From assembly GCA_051294375.1 (NCBI GenBank), contig CM119271.1, positions 11,335,434 through 11,399,433 of the forward strand: a stretch of 64,000 bases of DNA. Direction: 5' to 3'. Both the position numbers and the translations under genes were made by a program. The DNA is from Paraspadella gotoi (Eukaryota > Animalia > Chaetognatha). Below the pieces are notes generated by a model. It did not search any database. It was not told where the DNA came from and saw only the letters and a list, made by a program, of their open reading frames with translations. Of the stretch, positions 1,804 to 50,276 are shown piece after piece (the first letter of the stretch is position 1; every line of letters begins with the position of its first letter).

Positions 1804-2369
1804 TAACGCTAAACCTGCGGCAAGCGTGAAACGCCGTGAACTGCCTTTCGTCGTTATTGTTCCTTTTCACTCATCCGATTTCCAAAAAAAGTGATTATTG
1901 GTTTCGCAGTGAATTCGTGAATCCGTCACTCTCCTCTTTTTTTCATCTCCTCAACTCTTTTTCGTTGAGTCTGAGAATATGAAGTTTATGTTTAGGAGGG
2001 CTTAAGGAGTTTGAATAGTTAATTCGACATTTGTTGATGAAGGATTCTGCTTCTTCTNNNNNNNNNNNNNNNNNNNNNNNNNAGAGAGAGAGAGAGAGAG
2101 AGAATGAAAGAAAGAGACCCGGATAGAGAAACACTGCTGAGTTTTTAACAGGTTTTAATTTGTTGTCAGACAAGTCGCACACGAGTTTCGATTTTTTTCT
2201 TTTGTCACTTCCTGCGATGAATAATCTCTTATTATTTTATTTTAATTAAAGCGTTCTTTTACTATTTCTCCAATTAATAATTTATTAATTCATTAATTCC
2301 TTTATTCTCTCATTACTTTGGTCTTCATTCCGTCCCTCCAACGCAGTTGACTTCATTTTTTTTCATCAT

Positions 2370-2650
<281 letters not shown>

Positions 2651-3091
2651 ATTGCATTTATTTTTCTGCGACGTTCATTTATGCATTCATTCACTCACTC
2701 TCTGGCTCATTCAGTTTGTGATTCTTTCATTCATTCGCTCGTTCATTTGCCGATCCCTTCCCTCAATTCATTAGTTTATTCAATAATTCCCTGACTCGTT
2801 CAGTCACTCAGACATTCTCTCATTAATTCCCTCATTGATTTTTTTTTGTTCAATCAATCAATCATTCATTCAATCACTAACTCCGTCATTCATTCATTCG
2901 TTCATTAATTCATTCATTCAATCATTCACTCATTCATTCATTCATTCATTCAATTACTCCAATCAATGAAATATAATAAAAAATAAATCAAATCTAACCA
3001 TCATAAATCAAAAGAAAAACGATCGGGATTCGCTTTCAATATTTTTGTCCCTGCCTTCCTTTCCCCAGCTCTATTCCCTTCTTCCCTTCCA

Positions 3092-3429
3092 ATGATCCTC
3101 ATCCCCAACCGCCCCTCTTTCTCTTCCTCCTCCTCCTCCTCCTCCTCCTCCTACCCCGGCGCCCGAGAACTCGTTCTCGCCGCCCTCGACGGCGTCCTTC
3201 ACGTCTGGAGCGGGCGTGGCGGCGACGGACGCCTCCTTCCGGCGGATCTAGTCTGGCGGTTCGATCCGCGGGCGGACACGGATGCGGCGTCGTGGGCGGT
3301 CGACGAGACGAGCGGCGACGTTCCGACGGCGCGCATGGGCGCCGCGGGCGTCGCGGTCGACGGAGTTCTGTACGTCTTCGGCGGGAAGAATGGAGAGAAG
3401 TTGATGAGTGGGATATTTTCCTATCGGAG
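3092..3429 (+). CDS. Kelch domain-containing protein (KLHDC1/2-like), 5' exon
   Basis: VLHVWSGRGG...VWRFD...TSGDVPTARMGAAGVAVDGVLYVFGG kelch motifs in a GC-rich island that ends at an ag|gtgag donor. Confidence 0.75.
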
Positions 3430-4599
3430 GTGAGACGAGCGAGCGAGCGAATCGAACAAAAAAAATAATTCGTAAAGATATTGTGTGATCGATCAATTCT
3501 TTGTTCACATAATAGCTTAAGATAATTAATGATTAAAACTTTGAAACAATACTAGATCAGATTAGCAATCAGTCTGAAAACGAAATCAATCAATCTAAAA
3601 ACATTGAAAAAAATTAATCAATCAGTTAAATAAAAATAGTATTGATAGAAAGCAAGCAGGGTTTTGCTATCTTACTATCTTGAACGAGGTATGGTAATCT
3701 TAACCCACCGTAGCCTGTCAAAATTTCATAGCAATTATGTACAAGTAAAATAACCTATAATTTAATTAATAACTAAATTTGATATATATTTTTATACATT
3801 ATAAAGTAATAGAGACAATGTCTTGGCCGCACGGTCCGTTTTAATTTTAAAATCATTGCCTATCGATCGTTCCGGCCTTATTTTCTCCGTCATTTTCCCT
3901 AAAAATTGGATTATAACAACTATCGTATTGCTACATTTCCTTATTAACTGAACTCTCTATTTTATTCTTCTTAACTTGCTATGCTAATCTTCTTAACTTC
4001 TTTTATTCTATTCTTTCTTAACTCTACTTCTATTTCCTTCTTGAACCCCGTCCACCGCGCCACTTTTCTTATTTCGCTACTCTTTTTCTCATTAACGCTT
4101 CTACTGCTTCTATGTTCCATTTGTCCTCTAACGATTCTATTCACTGCCTTACTTCCTTACTTTTTTATTATAGTACCTTGGCTTAACTTCTATTATAGCT
4201 TCTTCTTAAGCTTCAGTGATTCTATTCTTCTTAACACTTCTATTTCTACTATCTTTCGGGCACTAGCTGACCTTTTGAACTTGTCTATGTCGTAACATAT
4301 GGGTACTTCTTCTAGCGTCTTAGTTCGTTGTGTGGTAAATTCCTTCTACAATTCTATTCTTCTTGTAACTTTCTATTGCTATTCCTTCGTAAACTCTCTA
4401 TTCTCAATTCTTCTACTTCTAAACTGTGGTATCCTATCTTTACCCTTCATGCCGCCCTCGGGCATCTTTGCTCCTTTCCTATTCCTTCTTCTCCTTCGCT
4501 CTCAGCCAGCTCTGCGAATTGAAGGTCCAGCCTGCGTCGGTGCTCTGCGACCACCGGATGCACCATCACCAACACGAGGCGCGGGCACCCGGCACGGCC

Positions 4600-5930
4600 C
4601 TGCCTGGCGCAGCGCCGGGATGTCCATGCGCAAGCGTCCCGACCCACAGGCGGCCTCAGCGGACTGAATGGTTGGACCGAGACAGACTGGAGGCGACGGC
4701 CGATAAGACTGTTTGGCTTCCTTCTTCCGGCCGGCGAACAAGCGAGCGGGGCCAAGCGCCATCGGCCGCCCTCGGATCTCCGCGCGGCGGACAAAGAGAT
4801 TCCCTCGGCTGCACGGATCAACTGCTTCGCTTCTTCACCGGAGGCGGCGGGAGACGGCGCCGTGCTGGGGCACCGTGGTGTCGCCGGGTCCGCGTCCGGC
4901 GCCGGAGATACGGCGCCGGTTGCGGAGCGATCGGGACGGCTAAGGCTTACCTTGGGCGGATGGGAGGAAAGGCTAGGGGAAGGAGGGAGTCAATCGGTTG
5001 AATGAAATTGATTAAATATCTTTAATCATAATTTTTATTTAAAATTTAAAATTTTTAAATTTAAATTTAAGATATTTAAAAATTAAAAATTTCAAAAAAT
5101 TAAAAATTTTAAATATTCAAAAATTAAGAAATTTAAAAAAAAAAATTTAAAAAATAGATTTTTAAAAGGCTCTTTTTATTTTTTGCTAAAATCTCTCCAG
5201 ACTTGCGGCAGACTTCAGTATAGCTTCAGAAATCTCAGACGTTCGCTCGCTTCCCCTCGCGCGCAGTACAGACCAGCCGGGTCGGGACGGCAGCCCGCCG
5301 ACGCCCCCCGAACCCCTTCGCGCCGCACCCGGTCGTCCGGCGCGCCCCAATGAACAAAAAAGAGCGGCTACTTGCGAACAGGCGACATCTGGGGTAGTTG
5401 TCTGAACTCATTCGACAACGAGCGAGTGGACATCCTTGGAGAGGGCATAACGTCATACATGAGATGCAGCGATGAGCGTTGGCGAATAACCCGACCACCC
5501 TCCGCGCCGCGACCGTCCTCTCTCTCCGGGGCCGCTCTCCCTGCCGCGGGCCAGGAAGTACGGACGCGGCGACGGCCCCGCTTCCCATGCGCTCAAGACA
5601 CCTGACTGGCCGCTCGACGAGGCGAGCGCGCTACTTCTGCCGGTGCGGGGACCGGTGCCTCGGCGCCGAGAAAACGGGAAGACAGTGATAGTCGCGGCAT
5701 ATTCGGAGACAGAAGCCCGGGGAGCGCCCAGAAGCAGTGGACGCGAGGAGAGAAGCAACGTTCTGACCCGGCAGCCAGTAGGGGCGTGAGTTCCGAGACA
5801 TTGTGGTCTTCGGTGCCGATCGACTCGGGCGAGGATCGGACGCGGGAGACCGTCATTCGTCGTGGGGGTAATGGGAGAGGAGCGCAGTCGGGATCGCCGA
5901 GAGCGTTTGTGGAGATTAGGGTCAGTGGAA
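4600..5930 (+). pseudogene. Kelch gene downstream exons, copy 1, heavily frameshifted (probably sequencing noise)
   Basis: GC-rich blocks 4600-4950 and 5365-5930 align by eye with 14570-14900 and 15220-15590 but contain many indels. Confidence 0.55.
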
Positions 5931-7535
5931 AGGGCATAAGGACTCGTTTTGAAGAGCTGTGAGAGGGGTGGCGGCGAGCAGAGAAGATTGAGAAGGGCGT
6001 GCGGTGTGTCGCGCCGGTGTCAAAGAGACTCTGGGAGAAGAATTGCCCGTTGTAGGTATTTATCTGTTATTATTGACGCTCGCGGCGGGGTCAGATTTTT
6101 TGTGATTATCGCTTATTAAGCAAAAAATAAATGGAATTGGAATTGTTTTACTTTTTCGTTTGGTTTCGTTTCATTTTACTTTTTCTTTCATTTTACTTTT
6201 TTTTTTTTTTTTTTGCCTTTTTCCAATTTTCAACAACTTTTTCTTTTTTAACGATTTATATCCTTCATTTCCCCCTCACTTTCCCCCTACTTCATTTTCC
6301 TCCTCCACAATTTCTTTTATATTTTCCTCCCTTCTTCATTTTCCTCCCTCCTTCATTTTCCTCCCTTCCTTCATTTTCCCTCTTCTTCATTTTCCTCCCT
6401 TTATTTTCCTCCTCTCCTTTCCAATTTTTCTCCCTTCTTCATTTTTCCTCTTTCTTCATTTTCTGCCCTTCTTATTTTTCTCCTCCCATTTCCTCCTCTC
6501 ATTTTCCTCCTTCCTTCATTTCCTCGCCTTCCTTCATTTTCCTACTCCTTCATTTTCCATCCTTCTCATTATTCCATCCCTCCTTCATTTTCCATCCCTT
6601 CTTCAAATTTTCCTCCCTCCTTCATTCCTCCTCCTTCATTTTCCTCCTTCTTGCATTTTCAATCCCTCATTCATTTTCCTCTTCCTTTCATTTTCCTTCT
6701 TTCTTCATTTTCCTCCTTCTTAATTTTTCTCCCTTCTTAATTTTTCTCCTCCTTCATTTTCACTCCCTCCCTCCTATCATTTTCCTCCCTCCTTATTTTC
6801 CTCCTTTCTTCATTTCCTCCCTCCATTCATTTCCTCCTCCTCATTTTCCTTCTTTCTCATTTTCCTCCCTCCTTCATTTTTCCTTCTTTCTTTCATTTTC
6901 TCCCTTCCTTAAATTTTTCTCCCATCCTTCATTTTTCCTACCTCCTTCATTTTCCTACGCCTCCTTGCATTTTCCTCCCTCCATCATTTCCTCCTTCTTC
7001 ATTTTTCAATCCTCATCTCGTTTCGTCTTCAACTCGGCGACGTCCGATGTCACTTCTTCCGCATCGTTTGGGGGGGGGGAGGGAGGAAAGAGGGAGGAGT
7101 AACGTCTCCCTCCCTTTTCCTCGGCCACTTCTACGCTTTCCTCTCTCTCTCTCTATCTCTCTCTTTCTCTCTCTATCTCTCTCTTTCTCTCTCTCCTCCC
7201 TTCCTCTCTTCCTCTCTCATGATTTCCCTACTCCTCTTTCTTTCTTCCTCTGTCCTCTCTCTCTCTCGTTCTCCCTTTCTCTTTCGCTCTCCCGCTCTCC
7301 CTCCCTCACTTCCTCTCCATGACTTTCTTCCCTCTCTCTCTCCCTCTCCTCCCCTCTCTTTCTCTCTCCTCTCCCTCCCTCTCTCTCTTCCTCCCCATGA
7401 TTTTCCCCTCCAGCGGTGAATGGAGGTTGATTGCGAAAACATCAGCAACGAGGATGAGAAAAAAATTCAAATCAGTTTCAATCAGGAGTAGAGGGAGAGA
7501 GAGAGAGAGAAGAGAGAGAGGAGAGAGAGAGAAGA

Positions 7536-7566
<31 letters not shown>

Positions 7567-8026
7567 GAGAGAGAGGAGATGAGAGCGAAGCTGGGTAGTA
7601 AAGACACGCGTCCACCGCAACAAAAACTATTCATTCGCCAGGCAACTTATCGTCAGGCGAGAGAGTGAGAAAAAGAGAGAAAGAGAGTGAGAGAGAGATG
7701 GAGAGAGTGAGAGTAAAAGAACGAGGCAGTAGTCGTCACCTTTATTTGGTCAAGTTTATCCAAATTGAATAAGACACATCCAAATTAACAGATCCTGTAA
7801 AGTTTAGAACAAATGAAAAACCCAAATTAAAATTAACAACAAAAAAAACACAACACGAAAAGAAAAAAAAAGAGAAAAAAGAAAAAAGAAAAAAACTTGG
7901 GATGAATGAGAGAGGGTTTGAAGAATCGAGATTGAGGAACAAACTCGATTTTTTTTTCAAAAGTTCAAATATTTTCTTTATTTATTCCAAAAGAGAATTT
8001 CTCTCTCTCTCTCTCTCTGCTCTCGT

Positions 8027-8061
<35 letters not shown>

Positions 8062-8155
8062 TCTCCTCTCTCTCCTTGACTCAAGATATATTTTTCTCCT
8101 TTAATCTTTCGCTTTGTCCTCACCAATCTCACGAAACAACCTTGTGGTTTAGGAC

Positions 8156-8186
<31 letters not shown>

Positions 8187-8313
8187 TGATGACGACGACG
8201 ACGACGACGAATGACGACCGACGGACGACGACGATGGCGAAAAAAAAACCTCAGAGCAATAATCATCTTCAAAGGCGTCGATTCAGAATCATCTCCGTTG
8301 ATGCTCATCTCAT

Positions 8314-8354
<41 letters not shown>

Positions 8355-11300
8355 TTTCTCTCTCTCTCTCTCTCTCTCTTCTTACTGTTTCTCTTTTCTC
8401 TCTCTTTCTCTCAAATCTTTTTCTCTCCTCTCACTCTCTCTCAATCTTTCTCTCTCCTCCTTTCTCTCTATTTTTCTCTCTCATCTCTAAACGTTCTCTC
8501 TCTCTATCTCTCTCTCTCTCTTTCTCCTCTCTCTCTTTCTCTCTCTCTCATCTCAATCTTTTTCTCTCTCCCTCCTCTCCTCTTTCTCTCTCTCTCATCT
8601 CTCCTCTTTCTCTCAATTTTTTCTCTCTCTCTCTCAAATCTTTCTCCTCTTTCTCTCTTTCTCTCTATCTTTCTCTCCTCTCTAAATCTTTCTATCTTCT
8701 CTCTCTCTCATCTCTCTCTCTTCTCTCTCTCAATCTTTCCTCCTCTCTCTCATTCTTTCTCCTCCTCAATCTTTTCTCTCTATCTCTCTTTCTCTCAATC
8801 TTTTCCTCTCTTTCTCATCCTTTTTCTCTCTCATCTCTCTCAATCTTTCTCTCTGCTCTCTCCTCTTTTCTCTTCTAATCTTTTTCTCTCTCCTCCTTAA
8901 ATCTTTCTCTCTCTCTCTTCTTTCTTCATCTCTCTCTCTCTGCTCCTCATCTCTCTCTCTCTCTCTTCTCTTCTTCTTTCTCTGTCTCTCTCTCTCAATC
9001 TTTTTCTCTCTCTCTCTCATATCTTTCTCTCTCTCTCTCTCCTCCTCCCTCTCCCTTGACTCAAGAGTAATTTTTTCTCCTTTATCCTTCGCTTTGTCCT
9101 CACAATCGCACGAACAACTTGTGGTTTAAGGACGACCACGATGACGGTGATGACGACGACGACGACGGGAACAGACGACCAGGACACGATGGCAAAAAAA
9201 AAAACCTCGAGAGCAAATATAATCTTCAAAGGCGTCGATTCAGACCTCATCTCTGCCTTGATTGTGCTCATCTCATTCCAACTTCGTCCGCCTCTCCATC
9301 TCTCGTCCTCGTCTCTCTCTCTCTCTCCCCCCTCATCAATCTATTCTCTCTCTCTCATCTCTTTCTCTCAACAATCTTTTTTCATCTCATCTCTCTTTTC
9401 TCAATCTTTTTCGAGGCATAATAATACTTGAACTTTCGCGGACACCAGATTTGGTCACTCTTTTTGTTTTTCCCCCGGCCGGGACTGGCCGGCCATTGTT
9501 CTCCTCCTCTCCCGGATTCGCAGGACCTTCCAGGAGGTGTCGGCAAGCGACGCCTCTACTGGCTGACTAGCGAACACCTAAGATACACAACTCGACGCGG
9601 TCATTGTCTTCTTCTTACTCTTCTCTTCTCTCTCACCCTCCATCATCATCCGCGCATCGCCTGCGATGCGGCAATCCGGGCTAATAAATCAGATTCAGAG
9701 TCCGAGTGAACCGCAGAACCTAGAATCCCTGAGGAGGACGTCTTGAAAGACTGTCTAGTCGCGGATGCAACTGACCTAGAGTTTCGTTCACTGATGTAAT
9801 TTTTTCCTTCAGGGAAAACTTCGGACCTTTTAATTCGTTAAAACTATCACTCTCTCTCAGAACGGTTAACACGTAAAACGTAACTCCGCCGAGTATATTA
9901 TATTATTTTAATAATTCAACCGTGTAAAAATTTACCAATAAACATATTCATATAACATTAAATTAATTAAAACAACCACAGCGAATGTACCAGTTTTAGC
10001 AAAGTACTCGGTTGATATTACCCGCATTGATAATTGAGACTTTAATCAGGGCTAATCTTGCATACAAGATGTTTTTTATATCGTTACTTTTGCGCCTTAA
10101 GCATAATACAGTATGAGTCAAGAGAAAAAGGCACGAGATTTAATTCTAATTTTAATATTAAGTTGTTCAATCGTTCTCATCTTTCTATCCTTCTCAGTCT
10201 TTGGCAATTTTTCCTCTTTTCTCTATTTCTCAATTTCTCTTTTATATATTAAGTTGGTAAGTAAGAGCTTTCATGAAACTATCGACCATATAATTAGTAA
10301 ATAACCACTTACAATATGAATTAGTTCATTATTTGTATTGATATGGTTTATTGGAGTTGAGAGGGGCTATTGATCAAAGACCGATTTATTGATAAATAAA
10401 TATTTTTGGTCGGGTTTTTTATTAAAAAGTATATCATCATTGAGAATATTTTTAGTTAGCCTTAATGTCTTTTTAAAGATTCCCTCCCTTCTATTATTAA
10501 TTGCTGGTACAATTTTTTTATAAGAATTTATTTTATTAATTTATTTTCATTCATCCTCGATTTTATTTCAGTTACATTCTTCTTTCGTTCTAAGAGGTTT
10601 AAAGAAAAAGAATAATTATGTATTTTTTTAACAACCAAATAGCAATCCACCGGAAGAGTGGTTTTCATTTAATATATACTTAAGTTTGTAAAGAAAATGT
10701 ATGTATTTTGCATTATATAGTTATATTTCAAAATATTATGGGTGTTATGAGGTAATCCCTTTCTTTTCGTTGTGATTAGAGATTTAAGACAGAGTATTGA
10801 AATAAATTGGCCAATAGACAATTTATTTTTTACAAAGCCTTCTTCAAGCGTCAATTTAGTTTGTGAAATTAATTAGAGATTTTGTGTAGAAAGATGGGGA
10901 GAGAGAGAGAGAGAAACAGAGAAACTTTGCCCTCTCTCTCTCTCCTACTTTCTCCTTCTACACAAAATCTGTCTAAATTATTTTCACAAACTAATGACGC
11001 TGAACGAGGCTGTAAAAAAGTTCAAAACATGTACAATTATTCCAATCTTTGATAAATAAATTGTTATTGCCAATTATTTCAAACTTTGTCCTAAGATGTA
11101 TACATAATTATTTGAAAGGAACCAAAAAAATTGGGAGAAGTAAATAATACTGGAAGGGCAGAAAAAGGAGAAGAAAAAGAGAAAGGGGGGAAAGGAGGGA
11201 AAGAAGAAAAGAAAGAAAGGACATAAGGGTATAAAGTTAGGGGATAAAGAATAAGAGAGATTAGGAAAGAAAAAAGATTGGGGGTTGATAATAAAAGAAA

Positions 11301-12494
11301 AAAAAATCATTTAAAAAAATAGAGAAGAGAGAGAGATGGGGAAAATATGGGGAGAGAAAAACAACGGACGGGAAAAAATACTTTTCTTTAAAAAAATTAA
11401 AGAGATTTCATAACAAATAATAACAAGAAATCGGTTAATAAACCGTAACTTTTAGGTTATAGAAACTCAGTCAAAATTATTTTTTATTTACATTATTTCG
11501 GACAAGTTTGGCTTCAGTCAAAAACAGAATTGATTTGTTTTTAAATCTATTTATTATTACAATTTTTCCATTTTTTTTCATCATTTACTATAATATCTTT
11601 TTTAAAAATGGTCTAATCGGTTGTCTCGAGAAACGAACACGAAAAGAAAGCAATATTATCCAAAAAATAAGTAAACTAAAAGATCTTCAGTCGCGACGCC
11701 CACGATGCTCCGGAATATTCGTCACTATTGATAAATCTCGCGAGATATTCTCACCAGGATCAGAGATAATTTTCCTCGATCCCGCCGACCTCGAGTCCCG
11801 GAGGCAAAGATTGGCCGACACGTTGTGGTCGGCCATGGTGGCACAAAAGGGAGACTATCCGGATTGGCTCGGGGAGTCACACCGTGGCTTCCGGCTCGCC
11901 TGCAGAATCCCGAGTATAACCCATGTCTTTATGTTCCTCTCTCTATCAATATATGCCTCGAAAGATCTTGATGCAGACAGAGAGCAGGAGAGGAAAAAGA
12001 TTGACTCGCAGCTCTTAATCTTATATGCTCTCTCTCAGATCCTCATCTCTCTCTCTATCGTATCAGACTTTTTCCTCTCTCTCTCTTATAAATTTCTTTG
12101 CCTTTTCCATCAGCAGATATCTCTCTCGTCAATCATCACTCTCTCGTTCCATCTCATCTCTCTCTCTCTCCCTCGCTCCTCTCCTCCTCTGCTTTTTTCT
12201 CAGCATGGGCAGCTCTTCCGCTCATGCCTCCTCCCGTCACTCTGTCTTCTTCATCTCTATCGACCGGTCATTTTCCTCTCCTCATCACTCTCTCAATCTT
12301 TTTCCTCTCTCTCTCCCGTCTCCTTCTCCACTCTCTCTTGCCTCTCGATGGACTCAGNNNNNNNNNNNNNNNNNNNNNNNNNCTCCAACGCAGTTGACCT
12401 TCAATTTTTTTCATCATGACAACATCAAACAACAACAACAACCCAACGACGGACAACTCTTTCAAAAGGGGAAAACCGAAATCGAGTCTTTTCG

Positions 12495-12539
<45 letters not shown>

Positions 12540-13197
12540 ACAACAACAACAAACAACAACACAACAACAACAAACAACAAACAACAACAACAAATGCCAT
12601 CGGACCTTGCAGATCTAGGAAAAATGGCCGAAGGGCTAAGACGTTGACGACGACGACGACACGAAGACGACAACGAATGACATTATTGCATATTTTCTAT
12701 TTTTATGCGATCGTTCATTTATGCATTCATTCGCTCACTCTCTCCGCTCAGTTCACAGTTTTGTGATTTCTTCATTCATTCGCTCGTTTCAATTAGCCGT
12801 TCCTTCCCTCAATATCATTAGATTTATTCGAATAATTCCCTGACTCTTTTCAGTCACTCAGGGAATTCTCTCATAATTTCGTTCAATTGAATCTATTTTT
12901 TTGTTGTTTCATCAATTTCAATCCATTCAGTTCAATACTTCAACAAGTGTGTATAAGTAGTCGTCAGTTCGTGAGATGTGTCATCATTCATTCATTAGTC
13001 TCATTAATTAATTCAATCATTCCTATCATTCATTCATTCAATTAACTCCATCAATCAATGAAATATATAAAAAAAAAATCAATGCAAGATATTTAACCAT
13101 CATAAATCAAAACGGGAAAACCTATCGGGATTCGCTTGTCAATATTCTTTTGTCCCTGGCCTTTCCTTCCCAGCTCTATTCCCTTCTTCTCCTTCCA

Positions 13198-13520
13198 ATG
13201 ATCGCTCATCCCGCAACCGCCCCTCTTTCTCTTTCCTCCTCGCTCCATCACGTCCTCTGACTCTCACCCACGGAAGCGCCCGCGCAACCGTCTCGCCGCC
13301 CTCAGATCGGCGTGCTTCTACGTCTTGGAGCGGGTCGTGGCGAGCGAGTCGGACGCCTCCTTCGGCGGATCTAGTCTGGGCTCGGTTTCGATCGCGGGCT
13401 GGACACGGGATGCGGTCGTACCTGGGCGCGTCGACGAGACGAAATGCGGCGGGGCGGTCGAGGCGCGCGGGCGCGCGGGGGCTCCGTTTGTTTGACGGAG
13501 ATTCTGTTCCGCTCGGTAGG
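13198..13520 (+). pseudogene. Kelch gene 5' exon, copy 2, frameshifted
   Basis: Noisy copy of 3092-3429 (atgatcgctcatccc..., ggcggatctagtctgg, tttgacgga). Confidence 0.55.
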
Positions 13521-15220
13521 GAGAGAAGGAGACAGCACCTTTGTCAGGGCGTGGGACGGGCTGTGAGGCGCGCTGGCGCTAGTGGCCGCGGTGTTTCGCG
13601 TCGACCGGAGTCTGTGACGTTTGCGGGCGAGGGAGCTGATGCAGCGGCTATTCCTCGCGACGTTGTCGCGCAGAGCTTGAAAGCGTACTTACAACAAAAA
13701 TAATTCGTACAAGATTATTTGTGTTGATCGCATCAAGATTCTGTTCACATAATACGCTTAAGATAAATTAATGATAGTGAATTACTTTGTGACACCGAAA
13801 GATTACGTAGATTCGGCATTAGCAATATCAGTTCATGAAAAACGAATCATACAATCTTAAAATCGATTCTCTAGAAAAGAGCTTATGTCAATCACGTTAA
13901 CATAAAAAAGAGTAGTCTATTATATAAAAGCAAGCAAGGGGTTTTGCTATTTGTACTACCTTTATAAACAGGTAATAGCTAACCTGTGTAAAACCCACGT
14001 CCGCCTGTCAATATTACAATAAGACAATTATTATACAAGTAAAATAGACCTATAATTTAATTAATAACTAAATTTGATATTATATTTTATACATTAAAGT
14101 ATATGAGACGGTTGGTTCTTGCCGCACTCGTTTTTAATTTAAATGTGCCTTAAATCGATCCGCCTTATCCGTCATTTCTAAAAAAATTGGATGATAATAA
14201 CTTCATATTCATCTTTTAACTTCTATTTATACTTCTAACTTCTATTCTATTTTCTTAACTTTCTATTCTATTCTTCTAACTTCTATTCTATTCTTCTTAA
14301 CTTCTATTCATCATTTCTTAACTTCTATTCTTTTCTTAACCTTTCTATGCTTCTTTTAATATCTTTAACTTCATTAATTCTAATTCTACTTCTTCTTAAC
14401 TTCTATTCTATTTTCTATCTATTCACTTGCTTCTATTCTGTTGGTAACATCTACAATTCTATTCTTCTTAACTTCTATTCTTTCTTCTTAACTTTTATTC
14501 TATTTCTGTCTTAACTTGTATTCTATCTTTATTCTTACTATTCTTCTTACCTTCCTTCACCTCCCAATACACGCACGCCCAAATGCGCCCGACGCCTCTG
14601 GACGCGAATCTCCAATCCAAGGTCCGACCCCTAGCGGAACGATGGTTGAACGAGCATAGCTTGAGCGACGTGCGAAGACTGTTTCTTCTTCGCGGCGAAC
14701 AGCGACGAACCATCTCCCTTCTGATCTCCGCGGCGGACAAGAGATTCCCCTCGGCTGCACGGATCAAACTGCTTCGCTTCTCACGGAGCGGCGGAGACGG
14801 CGCCGTAGCTGGGCCGACGTGGTGTCGCCGGGTTCCGCGTCCGCCGCCGAGATACGGCGCCGGTTGCGGAAGCGATCGGGACCAAGCTTTACCTCTTGGG
14901 CGGATGGGAGAAAAGGTTAGGGGAAAGAAGTCAAATCGGTTGAATGAAATATTGATTAAAATCATCTAATAAAGTTAAATTATTTAAAATTTAAAATTTA
15001 ATTTAAAATTTGTATTAAAAAATCTAAAAATTCAAAATTTCAAAAATTTTAATATGTCAAAAATTAAAAATTTAAAAAAAAAATTTTAAAAAAATAAGAT
15101 TTTTAAAAGGCTCTTTTATTTTTATGCTAAAATCTCTCAGACTCTGGCAGATACTTCAGAAACTCTCAAACTTGCTCTTTCCCCCCCGACCCTCCGCCCC
15201 CCTCTCCCCCCCAAAAAAAG

Positions 15221-30155: not shown

Positions 30156-33100
30156 TCTCTCTCTCTCTCTCCTCTTTTTAGTCGTCTCTGTCTCCTCTCT
30201 CCTCTCTCGTCGTTTGTCTTTCTCGTCNNNNNNNNNNNNNNNNNNNNNNNNNCCCTCCCTCTCTCCCTCTCTCCCTCCTCCTCCACCCTCAGAACATTTC
30301 GCCAAACTGATAGAGGTGGGCATCAACGAGAAGACCTCCGCCGAATTGGATCGACTTTTCTTAGAAAAGAAAATCTCGGCGTCGGATCTTGACGAGAGGG
30401 CGCTGGACGCGTTGAAGGAGTTCGAGGTGGAAGGAGCAGTCTGCGTCTTGAGGCAACTCGCTTCCGACGGTGAGACCCGTTGTCGTTGTTGTTGTTGTTG
30501 TGGTTGTTTTCGTTTTTGTTCTTGATGTGGTTGTCTTCGTTGTTGTTGTCAATGTTGTTGTTGTCGTTCTTCTTCTTCTTCTTCTTCTTCTTGTCGTTGT
30601 TGTGGTCATTGTTGTTGTTGTCTTTTTTGTTGTTGTTGTTGTAGTCGTAAACGTTCGTCGGTAAAAAATTTTATGACAGCCGTTTCTTTTCAATACGTCA
30701 ATGAATCAATCAATCAATCATTAGTAAATTAATTATTGAACAAATCCCGGAATTTACGAAGGTGTCAATCAGTCAATGAATTGTTCCATCAATCAATCAA
30801 ATCAATCATTCAATTAATTAAATTATTATTATGAAAGAATGAATGAATGAATGAATGAATGAATGAATGAATGAATGAATGAATGAATGAATGAATCTGT
30901 CTATGTTTTATCAATCAATCAATCAATCGCCAGGAAACCTAGATCACGTGACCAACAAGAGCGCCTACCTCTGCGGAGCGATCAAGACGTACAGACAGAA
31001 GCTGCGAATGGCTGGCGCCGGCGCGGCCTCCGCCATCGTCTCGGTCAAAGGACCGGACGAGGAAAAGCTCAACGTGAGTTCAGCTAAACTCTTTACTTTT
31101 GATTTTTGCCTTTCTCGCTGTGCATACATCTGTCGGAAGCTTATTCTCTCTCTCCCCAGTAGTTTTGGAAAATTCTGTATTATATTAGGACTAAGCTCTG
31201 ACGAACAAAGCCTGAGGTTTTTTTAATATATTCTTATACCGCCCAAGGTAGAATGATGGCAATATTGTTAATATTAAGTTTCAAAAAAATCCGACCATAA
31301 ATATAGAAAATATTAACCAAAATCTTCGGAAAATTCACCCCTTCTTTGGAACATTTTCGCCATAGAAGATTTTTCCCGAATCGTTAGCTCCTCTTTTACT
31401 TTTACTTTAAATAAAAATTTCACCAAAATAGACTAATTCACTTTACCATGATCGTATCATATCAAAATAACCAAATAAAATGTAAAGAAAAATTTTGAGA
31501 GCCCTTCAGACACTTTGCCAAAGGATTCCAAAATTTGACCTCATTTGTTGAACAGAAACATATCTCAGTCGCGTTTATATCGTTTTCAAAGAAAAAAATC
31601 CCTTTCATTTCAATATAAAATCAGAGATGAAAAATTTTTCCATCCAGAAGCAGTCTATTTGTTCTGGCTTGTTTGATATCAAGATGTTGATGATTTGACA
31701 AGAGAAAAAAAATGCGAGCCCTTCAGATGCAACAGGATCGGAATCAAGTGTTTTTACATCGATATTTTACCAGAATTTTTACCAGGAGCGTTTATATTGT
31801 TGGGTAGTCAGATTTGAACGAAAATCTCCATTGAAAAAGTCTTCCTCGATCTCTAAGAACGACGTAGACTCCTATCAAATTCTAAAATTAATTCCAAGCT
31901 GATATCGGTAAAGATTCTTTCTAGGAGCAGTGTTTATCTGCAAAAGAGCATTTGTTCGCTCCGGTTTTATAATAAGACCGCTCTGCCAGCGTTATTCTGT
32001 ACAATGTCGTTATTGTTAACCATTAAAAAGTTATTATTTCGTCCCTGAATCAAACTAAATCAAACTATAGTATATAGGAAAAATGACTTTTATAATATAA
32101 TAATAGTTTAAGAAGAAGGGGATAAAACTGTAATAAAATCATTTATATTTATGTATAAACATTGTCCTTGTTAAAAAAAATTTGTCTTTTATTAAATAAT
32201 AATTATACTTATTGTTATTTATCATTTTACTATATAAGATCGGATTTTATATTAATTTTTCTTCAAAAATATGTTCAGACTGAATTTCAGTAAAGCAAAC
32301 CAAAAAATAGCGATTAATCTCTAAATTTTTTTCCTATAAAAAACAGAAAAAAACTATTAAAAATCACAACATGCAGCTACTAAAAACTCATAAAATTATT
32401 AATAAAACGTAAAAAATATTATTAATAAAATATATGTTATTAAAAAAAACTAAACTCATCATCAGATTTCATATGTAAAATATGCTCTTTTTATGAAAAA
32501 TTCGCAAATATTCGCCAGGTTCGCTAATATCTTTTGTTCTTTTTGACCGGCTTGACCAGTAGGGTGGAGTGATGAAAAGATTGAGCGATGGAACTATGTT
32601 TTTTGCTGCCTTTGTATATAAAACTGAAAAACTTTTGTAAAATATGTTACATGATATTTTTAGGTTAAAGCTGTAAAAAATGACCAAAATGTTTCATCAT
32701 ATAATAGTTTCTACTACAAAGTGTAAAAAAAGTGGAAAATTTAACCTTTTTTTTCATTTTTGACGCTGAAAACATTAAAATTTTTTATAACATATTGAAG
32801 AAACAGTAATTATTATTATATGTTAGTGACAGAACCGTTCAATATAAGCAGTCCCTGAGCTTCGGATCAGGCTGTAACACCATGTTACAGGCGGGTTAAG
32901 CGCCCCATCCCTCTTAACTGCAAGGCGGCCACCGGGCTAAAACCCCGCACCAATGGCCGCTGATGAACGGATGGTGGATTTTAGTCCACCATAATATTTT
33001 ATATTTTTGATCTAACTTTTTATGAAGAATCAGAATGTTTAATAAAAATTTTAAAAAAATATTTTGAAAATTTATGATTTTATAAGAATATTACTATAAA

Positions 33101-36100: not shown

Positions 36101-39100
36101 TGATTCATTACCGATGCTTACTTTTGCTTACCTCCAGTTCATGATCCTTAAAGACTCGATCCTACATGCGTTATAGATACTCTCAGAAGGGTGAACAAGA
36201 GACGGAAAACCCCGCTCATCAAATTTAATATTTAAATTTTATTATTTGAAGTTGTGAGCGATTGATTCATTAAGCCAGAACAAAATTGTTGCTATTTATT
36301 CAATAAATTATTATTAAATCAATTCAAAAAGTAATAAGAACAAGGTGAGTAGATAATTTTAAAAATAATGATTACTGAATTATAAGAGCTCTGGAGCTAA
36401 AAATATGAGTTAATTTGTTACTGTCCAGCATCTAAAGAAAAGATTTAACTCATTATTTAATCAATATTATAAAAAATATTTGATAAATATTAAAAAATAT
36501 ATAATTTAAGATTTTTTTTAGTAGAAATAAGTTTGAGTTTATTTTTTTTTAAAAATCACTGAAAAAAGTTTTATACCACTTGCTTTATGTAATAAATACA
36601 GGAGTTTGCTTTGTTCAATTTTTGAAATTTAGGTATCCTATAAAATGGTCCATACTTGTGCGCATATTCATTATAATAAATTAAAGTTTTTCGATCTGGT
36701 ATAGGAGCAGTAAAATTTTCTTAACAGACAGTACCATTGGGACATACCAATGAAGGAAGTGGGCGCGGTTTATTAAAAATAAAAATAAAAATAAATCTTG
36801 AATAATGAAAATGGATAAGTGCGGAAATTGATACGTATGTAGTGCCTTTTGTTCCTACACGTAAACTAATTTTGAAAAAAATTTACTTGTATTCATACAC
36901 AACGGAATGTATGTTGAATTTGTGCATAGTGCCAGCTAAAAAAAATCGTAAAAAGCTCACCTTCTGAATCTGACATGTTCTTGAATTCCAGGGCAGCGAA
37001 ACCTTTTTTTCTGAATGAAAGTGGATCGAGAATCCCGAAGATTCCAGCAACCCCCATGCAAATGCCTCCCAAAGAGCTGATTTCATTTGCAGTGTTTACA
37101 TTGAATTGATTTCCAAGCATTTGTAAACCATCTCCGTATTGCCAGCAGTGTTTCGCGATTCGCTTTATGCTTTCCCACGTGAAACCTACTCCTTTCAGTT
37201 GCTCATAAATCTGTCCAATGGTGACGGTTTCGTTTTTAAAAAGATCCACGACATTGGAAAATGCCTCGGAGACGGATGCTCCGTTAAAGATTCTCGATCT
37301 CGCAACCAGAGGTAAAGCTGCGAATGCTGCTTTAGCAAAGCTAAAAAAGCATTTCACCCATGGCGAAACAGTCTCAGAATCGGCGTCGATCGGATCATTT
37401 TCATGGTCGGCATCTGATTTTGTTCCTCCTATCTTTCTTCTAACCCCAACGCCGAAGTAGTATAGATCTTCTAACAGATTGAAGGCAAAGTTTGCCGCAG
37501 TGATATACGTGGAGAAATAAAAAAAAGAGACAACAGTGACGACGCCGCTAATGATGGTTGTCACGTAGTAGATCGTGGAATCGACCGAGGATTGCAGATG
37601 GTATAAGTTAACCAGTTTAAGATCCTTAGTGTGAACTGTGATCTCCTCATCTTCGGTCGAGGCGAAAAAAAATTGTTATTACGAAATCGTATTTATATAT
37701 TTTACGTATTACGAGTGGCAATACATCTTTAATAAATAAGCCCTAATATCACCAGTCAATTAGTAGTATTAGTAGTAATCTCAAAAATCTTTAAATGCTT
37801 CTATTATGGCAACAGCCGGGTTGCCTGTGATGCCCATTGGGATGGGGAATCTCACTGTTGACTTTTGGGGCTTCCGACCCTCAGTGACGCATCAAGTCAC
37901 TGGCGCGGTTACCCTAGGACGGTCTCGCTTTGCCAACGTAGAGGGAAGTTGTTAGGACTGTGGTTGAAACACTACGTCTGGGTTGGTGTGCTCCCCCTCT
38001 GAGCCAATGGATTTGGCTTAACGATGGTGGACGTGAGGCAGTGTGTTATTTAGTATACTATGGCAACAGCCGGGTTGCCTGTGATGCCCATTGGGATGGG
38101 GCATCTCACAGTTGGCTTTGGGGGCTTCCGACCCTCGGTGACGCCTCCAGTCACTGGCGCGGTTACCCTAGGACGATCTCGCTTTGCCAACGCAGAGGGA
38201 AGTCGTTAGGACTGTGGATGGAACACTACACTTGGGATGGTGTGTTCCCCCTCTGAGCCAATGAATTTGGCTGAACGATGGTGGACGTGAGGCGGTGTGA
38301 TATACCGCCACAATACATTGATTTTCATTATCCTTCACTTGCGTTCAGTCAATCAATCCGTCAATGCGGCTCTTTTGGCGTAAGATTACAATATGATATT
38401 GGAAAACCAATATTAAAATTATCTATTCTATTTAGCTAATACCGAACAGATAAATAACAAACCGTAAGTTAATCATTAAATATATGTTTTATACTTGTGT
38501 AATAACGTGTAATTATGGAAGTCACTTTCATAATTTCATTTACTTTATTAGGTGTAAACATTAAAAAAATTAAACTCATTTTTTACTCACTGGTGATTTC
38601 GTCCGAACAACTTTGAAGGTTTTGAAGTTTTGCATAAATTCTTTGTCTCCCGACGTTACATGGCTCCATTTTCCCGTAGTTTCCATTACTCTTTGGTTTA
38701 CGTTTCTGCATTTTTTCGCCTTGTACATAGAAATGCGCAGTTCTTCTCGCCATTGGCCAGCCATGATGATGTACCTTATCCATAAAATTTTTTTAGTCGG
38801 ATCTGCTGAAAGCAGATCCCGACTCTATAATTCACTTTGTCGGTCCGTCGGTCCGCCCCCTCAATAATGACGGGCAACCACATATATCATGTCCGTCAGT
38901 CTGTCTGTCTGTCCGTCCGTCCTACCTTAGAAAAAAGTCCAATTACTCGTGATTGGATGGATGGATTTGAATGAAATTTTGTGTGTGGGTAGGGAAGTGT
39001 GTGATTGAGCTGGATATAAAGTTTCGATGGAATCGTCCGAGTGGAAATGAGTTTAAATGGAAAAAACAAAAAAATATAATTCACTATTTGAACACCAATT

Positions 39101-45405: not shown

Positions 45406-48400
45406 GGACGGACGGACGGACGGACATAATTTTTTTGCATAATTTATCATAATTCGATGTTCTGACATGATATCATTTAAGGAAAAACTCATAGAACCGG
45501 AACCGGAACGGAACCGGCGTCATCCTGTGTTCTTGATTTTTGCATGAGTTCGATTCTCAAGGAGATTACGCTGAGTGGGTAATCAACGTGTTGGGATGCA
45601 CTGGCTAGCGATGGGTAGATGGACGTTGGGGCTGGATTTGTTTGGCTTTGGTATCTCATCAGTTTTGATGTCCAGCCTGGCGAGAATGGCGTCCAATTTC
45701 GGGGTGACTGCAACCATGTGCCTGTCCATGGAATTAACTTTGCAATCCATGGCTTTGAGTTCTTTTGCGAGAAAATCAAATTTTTGTTGATTTTGTATAT
45801 TGGCCTCATTGACGATCTGCTTTGCAATGACTCCTTCCTTTGTCGTGAGTCTGCAGTGCTTTGACAACTCGGGCGGCATTACAAATGTGCGTATTAAGTT
45901 GTCTTCGTCGTCGGCACTGCTACCGTCTCCATCCTCGGACAAGGTCTTTTGTTTCGTCTTGTCCGGATCCCGCCATTCCGTCCAATTTGCCTTGGGTGCC
46001 GGCAGTGGTGGTAAATGCTCGGCAGCGGCGGAGGTTGAGGGCACGGGATCCATTTGGGGTGGCGTGGTCGTTGGTGGCTTCTTGGAGGAGTGGTGAGTCT
46101 TGCCCAGAAGTCCTGTCACCACATTTAAGGAAAAACTCATAGATTTCCAGGTTGAAATCAACTCGATTTTATTCTGAGTAAATAAAGGTGACGGTGAGAC
46201 GCACGCAGGAGTCTGAATCAATTCTACTGAAACTAAGAGAGAACTCAAGCTATTTATAACAAAAGACAGGATCAGAGCAAGAGTGATTTTGACAATCAAT
46301 TGTTTCTGCAAGCTGATTGGTCGGGTCTGGTTCAGTCTCGGCAATCAGCGTTCAATGGCGGGGATCGCCCGATCCTCTGATCGTTTTGGATTTTGGCGAG
46401 ATTGATCCTGCCTGGATGATATAAGTTAGTGCCCGACAATATTGAGGGGCGGACCGACGGACGACAAAGTGAGTTATAGAGTCGGGATCTGCTGATAAGC
46501 AGATCCGACTAAAAAGTCCATTAGTAAGTAAGGAGACAGCGACTTTAGGTGGCTTTATGATTTGTGCTTCAATCACTTAGTGACGATTAATTACTATTCA
46601 ATCAGGAAAGTCAGTCAATCAATCCATCTGTTTTTCAGTGCGGACAAATCTGGGATCTTCGCCTGATGATGGATCCACTCAGCGGCGCCAACCGCGGTTA
46701 CGCTTTCATCAAATTCTGCGGCCGCGACGGAGCCGAGGCCGCCGTCAGGATGTGAGCGGGGCTGTGGAAGGGGCCGGAGGGGAAGAGGGGTGTTCAGTGT
46801 AGAGATAAATAGGCCTTATTTACTCATAACACCCCAAGCTATCTTAAATTTGGAATTAAGTCATTTTTTTAAGTTATACTTATTTTGTTAAACAAGTTGG
46901 GTTGTTATTTTTTAGCTAAAGCTTTTTCTTTATTCAAATCTGTGATATTTATAATTCTTCATAGCAGAACAACCATTCAGTTATTAAATGAATCAATGAT
47001 TAAAAAATATTAAAAAATCTACTGACAAATCAATATACAAAACTTGTTTGACGATGAATTAGTATAATTGTATGTTCTATCAATTACTAATTCCAAAGTT
47101 TTTTAAGATAATCCTTTTTTTTAATTTTTATGGCAACCTATCTCGGATCACACACACACATACACACACATTAAAAAAACACATAAATATATACACACAC
47201 TAACATATAAACATAACATAAAGATACGACAACCACGAAGTGAAAAAGGGTAAAATCCTCAAAGTGAACATCAGCGTCGCCAACCAACGCCTCTTCGTGG
47301 GCAACATCCCCAAGAGCAAGAGTCGGGAGGAAATCCTGGAGGAGTTCGGGAAGATTACGACTGGACTCGTCGACATTATCGTCTACTCGTCGCCGGATGA
47401 TTTGAAGAAGAAGAATCGAGGCTTCGCCTTTTTGGAATACGACACTCATAAATCGGGTGAGGGATTATGGAGGGGGAAAAGGGGGAGACATTCACAAATT
47501 GGGTGAAGATAAGGGGGTAGGGGAGATACGAGATATTCACAAATCAGATAAGCATTGAGTGGAGGGTGAGGAAAATCCTCCTTACCAATCATTCATAATT
47601 CTATTACCTCTTTTATCTCTTTTCTATCCTTCTTTTATTCCTTTTTTATCCCTCTTTCCTCTTCTATCCATCTCCACCTTTATCTCCTCGTCTTTCTTCT
47701 CCTCTTCTCTATTTTGATTAACTTGGTTTACTTATGGCAACAGCCGGGTTGCCTGTGATGCCCATTAGGATGGGGCATCTTCACTGTTGGCTTTGGGGCT
47801 TCCGACCCTCAGTGACGCATCCAGTCACTGGCGCGGTTACCCTAGGACGGTCCGCTTTGCCAACGCAGAGGGAAGTTGTTAGGACTGTGGATGGAACACT
47901 ACGCCTGGGATGGTGTGTTCCCCCTCTGAGCCAATGGATTTGGCTGAAGGATGGTGGACGTGAGGCGGTGTGAATATACCGCCACAGGATCCCCGAGGCC
48001 AAGACATCACTCAGGTTCCTCAAGCCTGAGAGGTGTCTGACAAGACTGTTACCATAGTGGGAGAGAGAGAGAGAGCGCGAGTTGTGGGGCATAAGCGTTT
48101 GTCGTAGCGTACCCCAGGGGCATAGGCGTTTGTCGTAGTGTACCCAAAGTCGGCAGGGCATAGGCGTTTGTCGTAGCGTACCCTGAGAAGGTTGCGTATT
48201 CGATAGTAGGGCTCACCACTTATGGCATCAGCCGGTTGCCTGTGATGCCCCTTGGGATGGGGCATCTCACTGTTGGCTTTGGGGGCTTCCGACCCTCAGT
48301 GACGCATCCAGTCACTGGCGCGGTTACCCTAGGACGGTCTTGCTCTTGCCAACGCAGAGGGAAGTCGTTAGGACTGTGGATGGAAAACTACGCCTGGGAT

Positions 48401-50276
48401 GGTTGTTTCCCCTCTGAGCCATGGATTGGCAGAAGGATGGTGGACGTTAGGCGGTGTGAATATACCGCCACAGTTTTCCTTTTACTTTCCCAACCCACTT
48501 TTCCCTTAAATGCTCAGCCTCTTTGGCCAACAAAAAACTCGGGACCGGGCGCATCAAAGTTTGGGGCTGCGACATCCTCGTCGATTGGGCCGACCCTATG
48601 GAGGAACCCGACGACGAGACCATGTCCAAAGTAAGAGCCTATTTTCTGAAAACGACCCATTTCTGAATTTAATCACTCGCTCGAATTTTAATTCTTAACT
48701 AAATCTCCAACCAAATCTTATGCCTAATCTTAATCCCTATCTTTTACCCAATTTTTTTTTTTTTTTTTAAATTAAAAACTAATTCTGAATTAAAACTGAA
48801 ACGGGGCAACTTTCGAAAAATGTGGCCAAAAATCCCAAACTACGTAACATGAGATGGACTGACCTCTAGGTGAAGGTCGTCTACGTGCGGAACTTGAAGG
48901 AGTCGGTGACCGAGGAGGATCTGCGGAGCCTCTTCGAATCTCACGGACGAGTTGAGAAAGTGAAGAAAATGAAGGATTACGCCTTCGTTCATTTTGAGGA
49001 GCGGGATCACGCGCTGAGGTGAACATCTGTCACTCGTAATCGAATTCCATCGATTTATAAACACATTTGTTGTATAAATTACACCAACCATTGAAAGAGA
49101 TATATAAGAGAAATATAAAAAACGAATTAATGAGTAAACCTACAGCTTATCAGGCTGTAGCAACTTGCTTCAGACGTTTCACTAATAGCAGACTGGGTGG
49201 CTCAACGGGCTCAACGGGCTCAAAACTCGGACCTTTGGGTTGGGGGGGGAATGACTAATCAATTAAACTATTGAACGATCGATCAATAATTTTATGTCCC
49301 AATTTATAACTATCAAATTATTAATCAATCGAAAAATTCTTTATTCAAACTGTGAAACTTATAGATCCATTTATTTCTCAATCGTTCAATCAAACAATCA
49401 TTCGAACTATTTTAACTTGATGTCTAGAGAATATAAATTGCTAAACGATTATCTAATTCTCTCATTTTCTAAATTAATATAAATCTATAAATTAATTATT
49501 AAATAAATTAAAATATAAATTAATATAAATTGCTAAACGATATCTAATTCTCTCATAGTTCTACTTATTTAAAGTTTATATATCAAAACAATATCATCCA
49601 TTCCTCTCTTTTAGCGCCATTCGAAGGGAGAACGGTCGTGAGATGGACGGAGTTGGGATAGATGTCTCTCTGGCGAAACCTCCGACGAAGAAGAAAAAGG
49701 AACAAAAGCTCATGCGTCAGGTTAACAATAGACCTATTAATGTTAATTTATATAAAAGATAGTATTAATTTTTGGGGTCGGTAAATTTTTTTAGAATTGG
49801 GCAATTTTTAAATGTAGTTTTATACTTATAAAATGTTCATAATAAGAGCAGATTTGAATTCCTCATTTTTATATATTTACTTCGTTTAGGTGGTTAAAAA
49901 ATCTTGTTAAAAAAATTATTGGTAATGGTAAATTTAAGGTTAGAATATTAGTTTTTATCATTTTTGACTAACTTACTTTTTCCTCCCGAAATTGAATAAT
50001 TGATTTTTTTTGATATTTTAAGATCGATTAAAATGCATTGATTGATATATCGACTCATTGATTTAAAGTCGATAGCCTGATTAAAACCCTAAGACTACTA
50101 ACCCAACTATCCCGATAGATGGCAGCGGGTCAACTCCACCGAATGGCCGGCGCCTCTTTTCCCGGCGGCGATCCTTACGCGGCCTACGGCGCCAACGAAG
50201 CTTACAACCGGGCCTTCCCCCCGCCTCACGCTTTGGGTCGAGGCGAGAAGGGATCATCCGCTAGGTGGAAGAAGGA

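Follow-up and report, generated by a model that had tools for sequence, protein, structure and literature searches.

What kind of element is formed by two direct repeats on the minus strand of a chaetognath contig, and does each of them carry a twister ribozyme? The stretch in question is a 64,000-nt window of the Paraspadella gotoi genome (assembly GCA_051294375.1, contig CM119271.1, positions 11,335,434 to 11,399,433), and the element, here called locus A, occupies positions 47733 to 48472 of this window. A sequence-only reading had proposed a long terminal repeat (LTR) retrozyme whose twisters would release a circularisable RNA. Both the LTR anatomy and the assignment to the type-P5 twister hold up, given high-copy fixed ends, covariation in a diverged second family and substitutions of a tolerated kind. 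We are confident that the locus A family is an LTR-type element, and we think it likely that its ribozyme is active. With appreciably less assurance, we lean towards a non-autonomous miniature LTR element that carries type-P5 twisters and replicates through circles with the aid of a helper. The circle, of 487 nt, is a prediction for the family and not a finding at locus A.

The element is 740 nt long, with two direct repeats around a non-coding interior. On the minus strand, the 5' LTR (48221..48472; 252 nt) and the 3' LTR (47733..47986; 254 nt) both run TGTGGC...GCCATA, as had been described, and they share 93.5% identity. The 234-nt interior (47987..48220, minus strand) is itself high-copy. 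No Pfam match was found in any frame overlying the element, which argues against a coding role. The repeats start with TG and have a 6-bp imperfect inverted repeat at their ends; they differ from each other by nine substitutions and eight indels. Because these indels are so numerous, they suggest an assembly error within repeated sequence, and the copy at locus A has probably either decayed or been wrongly assembled. The TGG that had been read as a primer-binding site does sit two bases beyond the 5' repeat: the interior opens with AG, followed by a primer-site-like 13-mer (48206..48218, minus strand) that is complementary at 11 of 13 positions to the 3' end of tRNA-Trp. The rough chance of this agreement is about 0.001, assuming 45 tRNA ends, and the reference is the arthropod 3' end printed in the cited part of the PMC10886601 supplement, not the host's own tRNA. 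Further inside, three 29-nt repeats (48086..48183, minus strand) fold as similar stem-loops and are a possible packaging signal. The opposite orientation was ruled out, as the plus strand has no TGG past the repeat. A tRNA cargo in the LTR, of the Helenus type, was also ruled out: ARAGORN found no tRNA gene, and there is an A-box-like word only, with no B box. The element lies antisense within an intron of an hnRNP Q/R-like gene, between an RRM exon at 47222-47503 (Pfam) and a next exon read near 48.5 kb.

Locus A belongs to a very high-copy family with sharp, fixed ends. Ten listed sequencing runs, from four studies, contain part of the stretch. Contigs of four of them were compared with it (12,392, 8,940, 3,023 and 560 contigs), and in both the repeat and the interior the contig depth exceeds that of the flanks by a factor of thousands, which is not a copy number. 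Contigs depart from the element at the two ends of the 3' LTR: in run X1, 86 + 68 of them do so at 47732/47733 and a further 105 at 47986, and the other three runs behave likewise. These ends are the termini of the family as contigs show them. The outer junctions on either side of locus A are also spanned by contigs, without differences. Run X9, which is only guessed to be RNA and includes intron flanks, gave an element-to-flank ratio of about 4,100, against 4,150-18,300 in the DNA runs, and was counted neither for nor against expression. In the same run, a contig of 1,998 nt (depth 214) carries in its middle a diverged version of the repeat's 3' half, and other loose contig ends depart from the interior just past the primer site (48190); both may represent related subfamilies or a helper. 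The window itself contains two further repeat copies at 37.8-38.3 kb that had been missed. One is a full-length solo repeat, B-up (38059..38312, minus strand), which is flanked at each end by the 4-mer GTAT. The other, B-down (37805..38045, minus strand), is clipped at its 5' end and begins 13 nt past B-up.

Several features of the termini sit less easily with an LTR-type element. All three full-length copies have TG...TA termini instead of TG...CA; the right-hand TA is irregular, but it is not decisive because a crustacean CsRn1 element likewise has non-standard ends (PMC3587641). The only polypurine tract candidate (47990..47994, minus strand) is poor, the interior finishing with five purines and then the three pyrimidines TCC ahead of the 3' repeat. 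Neither reverse transcriptase nor integrase was found by Pfam in the 91 frames scanned out of 240 window frames of at least 70 aa, low-complexity frames having been dropped. A 4-bp target-site duplication had been suggested at locus A, and here only part of the claim stands. At the family terminus the element is preceded by AAAC and followed by AGTA, and therefore shows no duplication. The AAAC that precedes the element (48473-48476) does recur at its right edge, in AGT + AAAC (47726..47732, minus strand), and a duplication results only if the element ends 3 nt past the terminus that contigs define. This AGT is the same three bases as those after the 5' repeat, and the arrangement is possibly an unprocessed right end plus a target duplication, an explanation arrived at post hoc.

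Among the three insertions with both ends, the 4-mer duplication is exact only at B-up; it needs the 3-nt overhang at locus A and is not seen at element C, a diverged relative described below. Even at B-up, GTAT is also present near the start of the repeat, so that its downstream 4-mer could derive from the clipped copy B-down. The loose contig letters beside both family ends are ATAT-like (agreement only 0.41-0.47), a hint of a 4-bp target preference within AT-rich DNA. The missing clean duplication at locus A and element C, and the weak polypurine tract, would suit a non-LTR passenger of the Penelope/Naiad type or an animal retrozyme, in which the LTR-interior-LTR layout would be a 1.5-unit tandem produced by rolling reverse transcription; animal retrozymes are indeed tandem non-LTR repeats in the sections of PMC7229834 cited here. 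Such a passenger is improbable, in our view. Both ends are fixed to the base in hundreds of contigs, and the TG start, the imperfect inverted repeat, the tRNA primer site behind the 5' repeat and the full-length solo repeat all speak for an LTR-type element. The animal retrozymes of the same source are without these features, and their duplications are longer.

Each repeat of the LTR-type element also carries a type-P5 twister layout. In the 5' repeat this spans 48272..48353 (minus strand), with the predicted cut at 48326/48325 and the general-base G at 48339; in the 3' repeat it spans 47786..47864 (minus strand), with the predicted cut at 47839/47838. The two U/A sites are where the sequence-only reading had placed them, and the monomer predicted between them (47839..48325, minus strand) is 487 nt. 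All five window copies, including element C, parse in the order P5a-P2b-GA-T1b-tiny P1-UAA-P2a-GC-P3 (7 bp)-P4-L4-P5b, in agreement with the Rfam Twister-P5 consensus. The T1 and T2 pseudoknots pair in all five, two copies having one G-U. In the four copies of the locus A family, P3, P4 and P5 are formed as well (with one A.C in P3 of B-up), and P1 measures 8 nt. The fold that had been read in each repeat is thus present in its order and in most of its helices, but P2 is defective in both repeats of locus A. Where GCGG/GCGA had been named as the partner strand, the 5' repeat has GCAA, leaving two of four P2 pairs, and the 3' repeat lacks one base between P2b and the catalytic GA. Element C also lacks a base in P2. 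The GCGA strand belongs instead to the B copies (twisters at 38111-38191 and 37857-37937), which form three of four P2 pairs; B-down has every pair except the C.A in P2 that is typical of the family. B-up and B-down have predicted cut sites separated by 254 nt, the length of a single repeat, which means that an RNA made of the repeat alone could be released.

We wrote a type-P5 descriptor on the column layout of Table 1 in Liu 2021 (PMC8501958), the comparison being with Rfam consensus lines and the Schistosoma table of that source. It matches three of the four family copies in the window (the 3' repeat of locus A fails), nothing in 60 window shuffles and nothing in 5000 repeat shuffles. On pattern-selected controls it passed 38/46, 7/20 and 51/51 loci, and Rfam confirmed P5 in 17/20 and 9/12 pattern-selected control loci. 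An exact 26-nt family word was found at no locus among metagenomes, and sequence look-ups gave nothing similar. A looser family pattern found one viral contig and 19 metagenome loci; one of the 19 passed the descriptor, none had P3 or P5, and these were judged to be chance matches.

The diverged relative, element C (32819..32993, minus strand), carries the same fold. It is a 175-nt, terminal-repeat-like GC island that opens with TATGG and closes with CATA, is present once in the window, and has a 14-15 nt word in common with the 5' part of the repeat (two matches; none in 100 shuffles). Its folding z score is -3.76. It parses as a type-P5 twister (32848-32921, predicted cut 32898/32897) with a 6-nt P1 and a 7-bp P3, under a relaxed descriptor that matched nothing in 100 window shuffles. 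A model derived from the P5 twisters of phages and prokaryotes (R1; 31 sequences) had its top match here (32855-32917; 24.6 bits, E 0.0007), but in the wrong register. When only the four copies of the family went into the model, element C was its best non-self match, in register (18.6 bits, E 0.0034, a rough value). Compared with the family, element C has double changes in two of the seven P3 pairs, in T1 and in the closing pair of P4, and its P5 is different yet paired; UAA, GA, GC/GC and AA are unchanged. This covariation between element C and the repeat family is the best evidence of selection on the twister fold.

The curated models, to which the sequence-only reading had looked for confirmation, do not supply it. 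Rfam gave no gathering-level match in the window and no Twister-P5 (RF02684) match at E<=10 in 47600-48700. At that threshold twister-P1 alone matched, covering only the 3' two-thirds (24.8 bits, E 0.011; 16.4 bits, E 2.8). No hammerhead was matched either (window at gathering; 47600-48700 at E<=10). Model R1 scored only fragments of two of the four family copies (E 6-7), and the model from the family copies barely scored known P5 twisters (best E 0.33). The relaxed descriptor, furthermore, was tuned after element C had been seen. These points weigh against the twister assignment, and the failure of any curated model to reach threshold, together with that late adjustment, is what one could cite for a chance resemblance in a GC-rich, hairpin-rich repeat. 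We regard chance as very improbable: the shuffles of window and repeat stayed empty, both pseudoknots pair in every copy, and the pairs covary between families.

A harder question is whether a genuine type-P5 twister in these repeats still works. The family departs from phage P5 twisters in two swapped T1 pairs and in the C.A at the first P2 pair. None of 86 viral loci with the family's T1 letters passed the descriptor, and the C.A occurs in one of 51 distinct natural P5 cores. In the cited part of the rice twister mutant matrix (PMC5113685), G44A, which corresponds to the C.A pair, has an activity of 0.97, and C27G/G47C and C26G/G48C, which correspond to the T1 swaps, have 0.86 and 0.74; single sides are far lower, G47C alone giving 0.17. 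This assay saturates, and the family's combined changes fall outside the measured set. By analogy with rice, then, the odd P2 and T1 pairs of the family seem to be tolerated. The state of the 5' repeat of locus A is less favourable, since the rice analogues of two adjacent P2 mismatches range from 0.10 to 0.88 in the same portion of that matrix. P1 is dispensable in the twister according to the cited passages of PMC5408937 and PMC5113685. Common contig variants avoid the non-loop core: they affect none of its 72 positions, against 12 of 175 others (p 0.014), and fall either within the P3 loop (47819, 47823) or beyond the ribozyme; two differences private to locus A (47767, 47877) were dropped, and 11 variant rows lie outside the listing used. 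The contrast falls to 2/72 (p 0.17) when two low-depth variants are counted.

That last result, the flawed ribozyme cores of both locus A repeats, the rarity of the family's letters among natural twisters and minimum-energy folds without P2 or P4 all count against activity. They are compatible with an ordinary terminal-repeat retrotransposon in miniature (TRIM) on the standard linear route, its twister a captured relic, dead or kept misfolded: no window copy has a perfect P2, and Rfam is silent. We consider this unlikely. Two diverged families have retained the fold, in which every invariant letter is present and pairs change in a compensatory way; the rice data just cited show the C.A pair to be neutral; and two pseudoknots are beyond the reach of energy programs.

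Two observations were made on phage twisters in the course of these comparisons. Contigs L026, L028, L057 and L061 each have two Twister-P5 matches less than 300 nt apart, and many phage P5 twisters (L088-L138) have the T1 pair 27-47 swapped, mainly in one widespread family.

If the ribozyme is active, how might an element with one in each LTR replicate? Transcription would start in the 5' repeat and continue across the 3' repeat, and intact family copies are predicted to cut at U/A in both repeats, 487 nt apart. The monomer would then be ligated into a circle so as to be copied, by a ligase that we presume to be RtcB. A helper reverse transcriptase, primed by tRNA-Trp, would go more than one turn round this circle and rebuild both repeats, and the helper integrase would insert the DNA with a 4-bp duplication, recombination later leaving solo repeats. 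Circularisation is needed in this scheme because the terminal redundancy used in the first strand transfer is lost once each repeat has been cut at the equivalent position, and LTR reverse transcription requires such redundancy in the account cited from PMC10886601. A Ty3/Gypsy partner had been proposed. By analogy this narrows to the CsRn1 lineage as the most likely helper, because of the tRNA-Trp primer and the 4-bp duplication, the two features by which CsRn1 is defined (PMC3630058); the lineage is common in crustaceans (PMC3587641). No helper gag-pol element sharing the ends or primer site was found in the window.

The circle is the part of this scheme with the most direct competitor. In the predicted 487-nt circle 58% of the bases are paired (z -2.55), computed on a copy that may hold errors, against more than 70% for the retrozyme circles described in the cited part of PMC4918200. 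Such modest pairing counts against a circle and would fit a rival account, in which the miniature LTR element has an active twister but replicates as linear RNA. Transcription would start inside the 5' ribozyme, past the catalytic G; in the type-P5 permutation this G precedes the cut by 13 nt, and so a start between the two would disable the 5' ribozyme only. The 3' ribozyme alone would then cut, in place of polyadenylation, and a short redundancy would be kept. The repeats contain neither AATAAA nor ATTAAA, as would be expected on such a route. Nevertheless, the redundancy would be at most 13 nt, which on general knowledge is short for strand transfer. In plant retrozymes, furthermore, both ribozymes cut and circles accumulate (PMC4918200 and PMC7761336, in the sections cited). 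Replication on linear RNA is thus rather unlikely, and circle-based replication through a helper is the account that we carry forward.

The nearest known systems are the plant LTR retrozymes, which, as far as the cited sections of PMC4918200 and PMC7761336 describe them, are likewise non-coding, with a ribozyme in each direct terminal repeat and a tRNA primer site past the 5' repeat. They also share solo repeats, a 4-bp duplication (one case here) and an inferred Gypsy-type helper. They differ in having a type III hammerhead and a tRNA-Met primer in plants, whereas the present family has a P5 twister and a tRNA-Trp-like primer site in an animal; their repeats of 300-400 nt and monomers of 600-1000 nt compare with about 254 and a predicted 487 here. 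RNA and circles have been seen in plants and are predicted for the present family, which has a weak polypurine tract and less self-pairing. Animal TRIMs, including Helenus (Kojima 2024, PMC10886601, in the parts cited), are similar in being non-coding elements of less than 1 kb with two LTRs, a primer site, a 4-bp duplication (exact in one case here), a Gypsy helper (a likely one here) and a small structured RNA in the LTR. Their cargo, however, is tRNA or 5S sequence; here it is a ribozyme fold, and the polypurine tract is poor.

The ribozyme itself resembles the type-P5 twister (RF02684; PMC5408937, in the cited portion) in segment order, UAA cut site, GA, GC/GC T2, U-NNN-AA-GC loop, three-pair T1 and closing P5. 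It departs from RF02684 in a P1 shrunk to a hairpin of 6-8 nt, the presence of P3, two swapped T1 pairs, the C.A first P2 pair and a score below any in Rfam. Twisters within an animal retroelement are known from the RTE element Perere-3 (Liu et al. 2021, PMC8501958), where, in the part of the paper cited, the element is a coding, non-LTR one with a single type-P1 ribozyme that trims its 5' end. The twister of the present family is of type P5 and occurs twice, in the terminal repeats of a non-coding LTR-type element. The animal non-LTR retrozymes of Cervera and de la Pena 2020 (PMC7229834, as cited) are non-coding, with ribozymes a monomer apart and predicted circles, but they are tandem arrays of type I hammerheads without LTRs, primer site or short duplications. 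The locus A family therefore looks like a plant LTR retrozyme that lacks the hammerhead, and has the P5 layout without the Rfam P5 score.

The window also contains Pfam-matched exons of synapsin, a kelch protein and the hnRNP Q/R-like RRM gene. For one synapsin exon the closest named matches are from arthropods, at 70-78% identity, with fish at 72-74%. A kelch-repeat exon block of about 7 kb is duplicated (2336-9412 and 12383-17860; 70-88% identity), the second block being either a genuine tandem copy of the gene or an artefact of noisy assembly. Between 38790 and 45284 lie several copies, in both orientations, of internally repeated elements of about 156 bp. An open frame of 260 codons (36893-37675, minus strand) lies just beyond the clipped repeat B-down. 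Another of 253 codons (45583-46344, minus strand), with a coiled-coil look, stands between two copies of a 17-nt word in the intron of the hnRNP-like gene. Neither has a Pfam match and atlas leads for both are below 0.9, and they were not taken as parts of a helper.

The combination of a twister with LTRs had been put forward as undescribed, and our literature searches agree: they yielded neither an LTR element that carries a twister nor an LTR retrozyme from an animal, although the lists of Roth et al. 2014, the supplement of Liu 2021, Repbase and Dfam lay outside the search and could hold one. In the parts of the literature cited, twisters are placed only in RTE elements, viruses and viroid-like circles (PMC7761336, PMC7229834, PMC5680766, PMC9695139, PMC6765202, PMC13725137, bioRxiv 2022.07.19.500677), the LTR retrozymes described come from plants and use hammerheads, and the retrozymes of animals are described as non-LTR hammerhead tandems (PMC4918200, PMC7761336, PMC7229834). 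Whether animals have LTR retrozymes of their own built on the twister, with at least two families here hijacking a CsRn1-type Gypsy through circular RNA, is to our minds evenly balanced. If they do, a twister-bearing animal LTR element would break both of the limits just named. The twister would gain a second natural job, circle formation, besides the 5' trimming of RTE elements, and engineered twister-based RNA circularisation would have a natural counterpart. Furthermore, P5 twisters whose P1 is tiny escape Rfam, and such elements may therefore be under-counted in animal genomes. Finally, the many natural copies of the family would allow a test of whether LTR elements are able to dispense with terminal redundancy and use circles for their replication. 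Ribozyme-driven replication through circles would then have had more than one origin among LTR elements, independently of the hammerhead.

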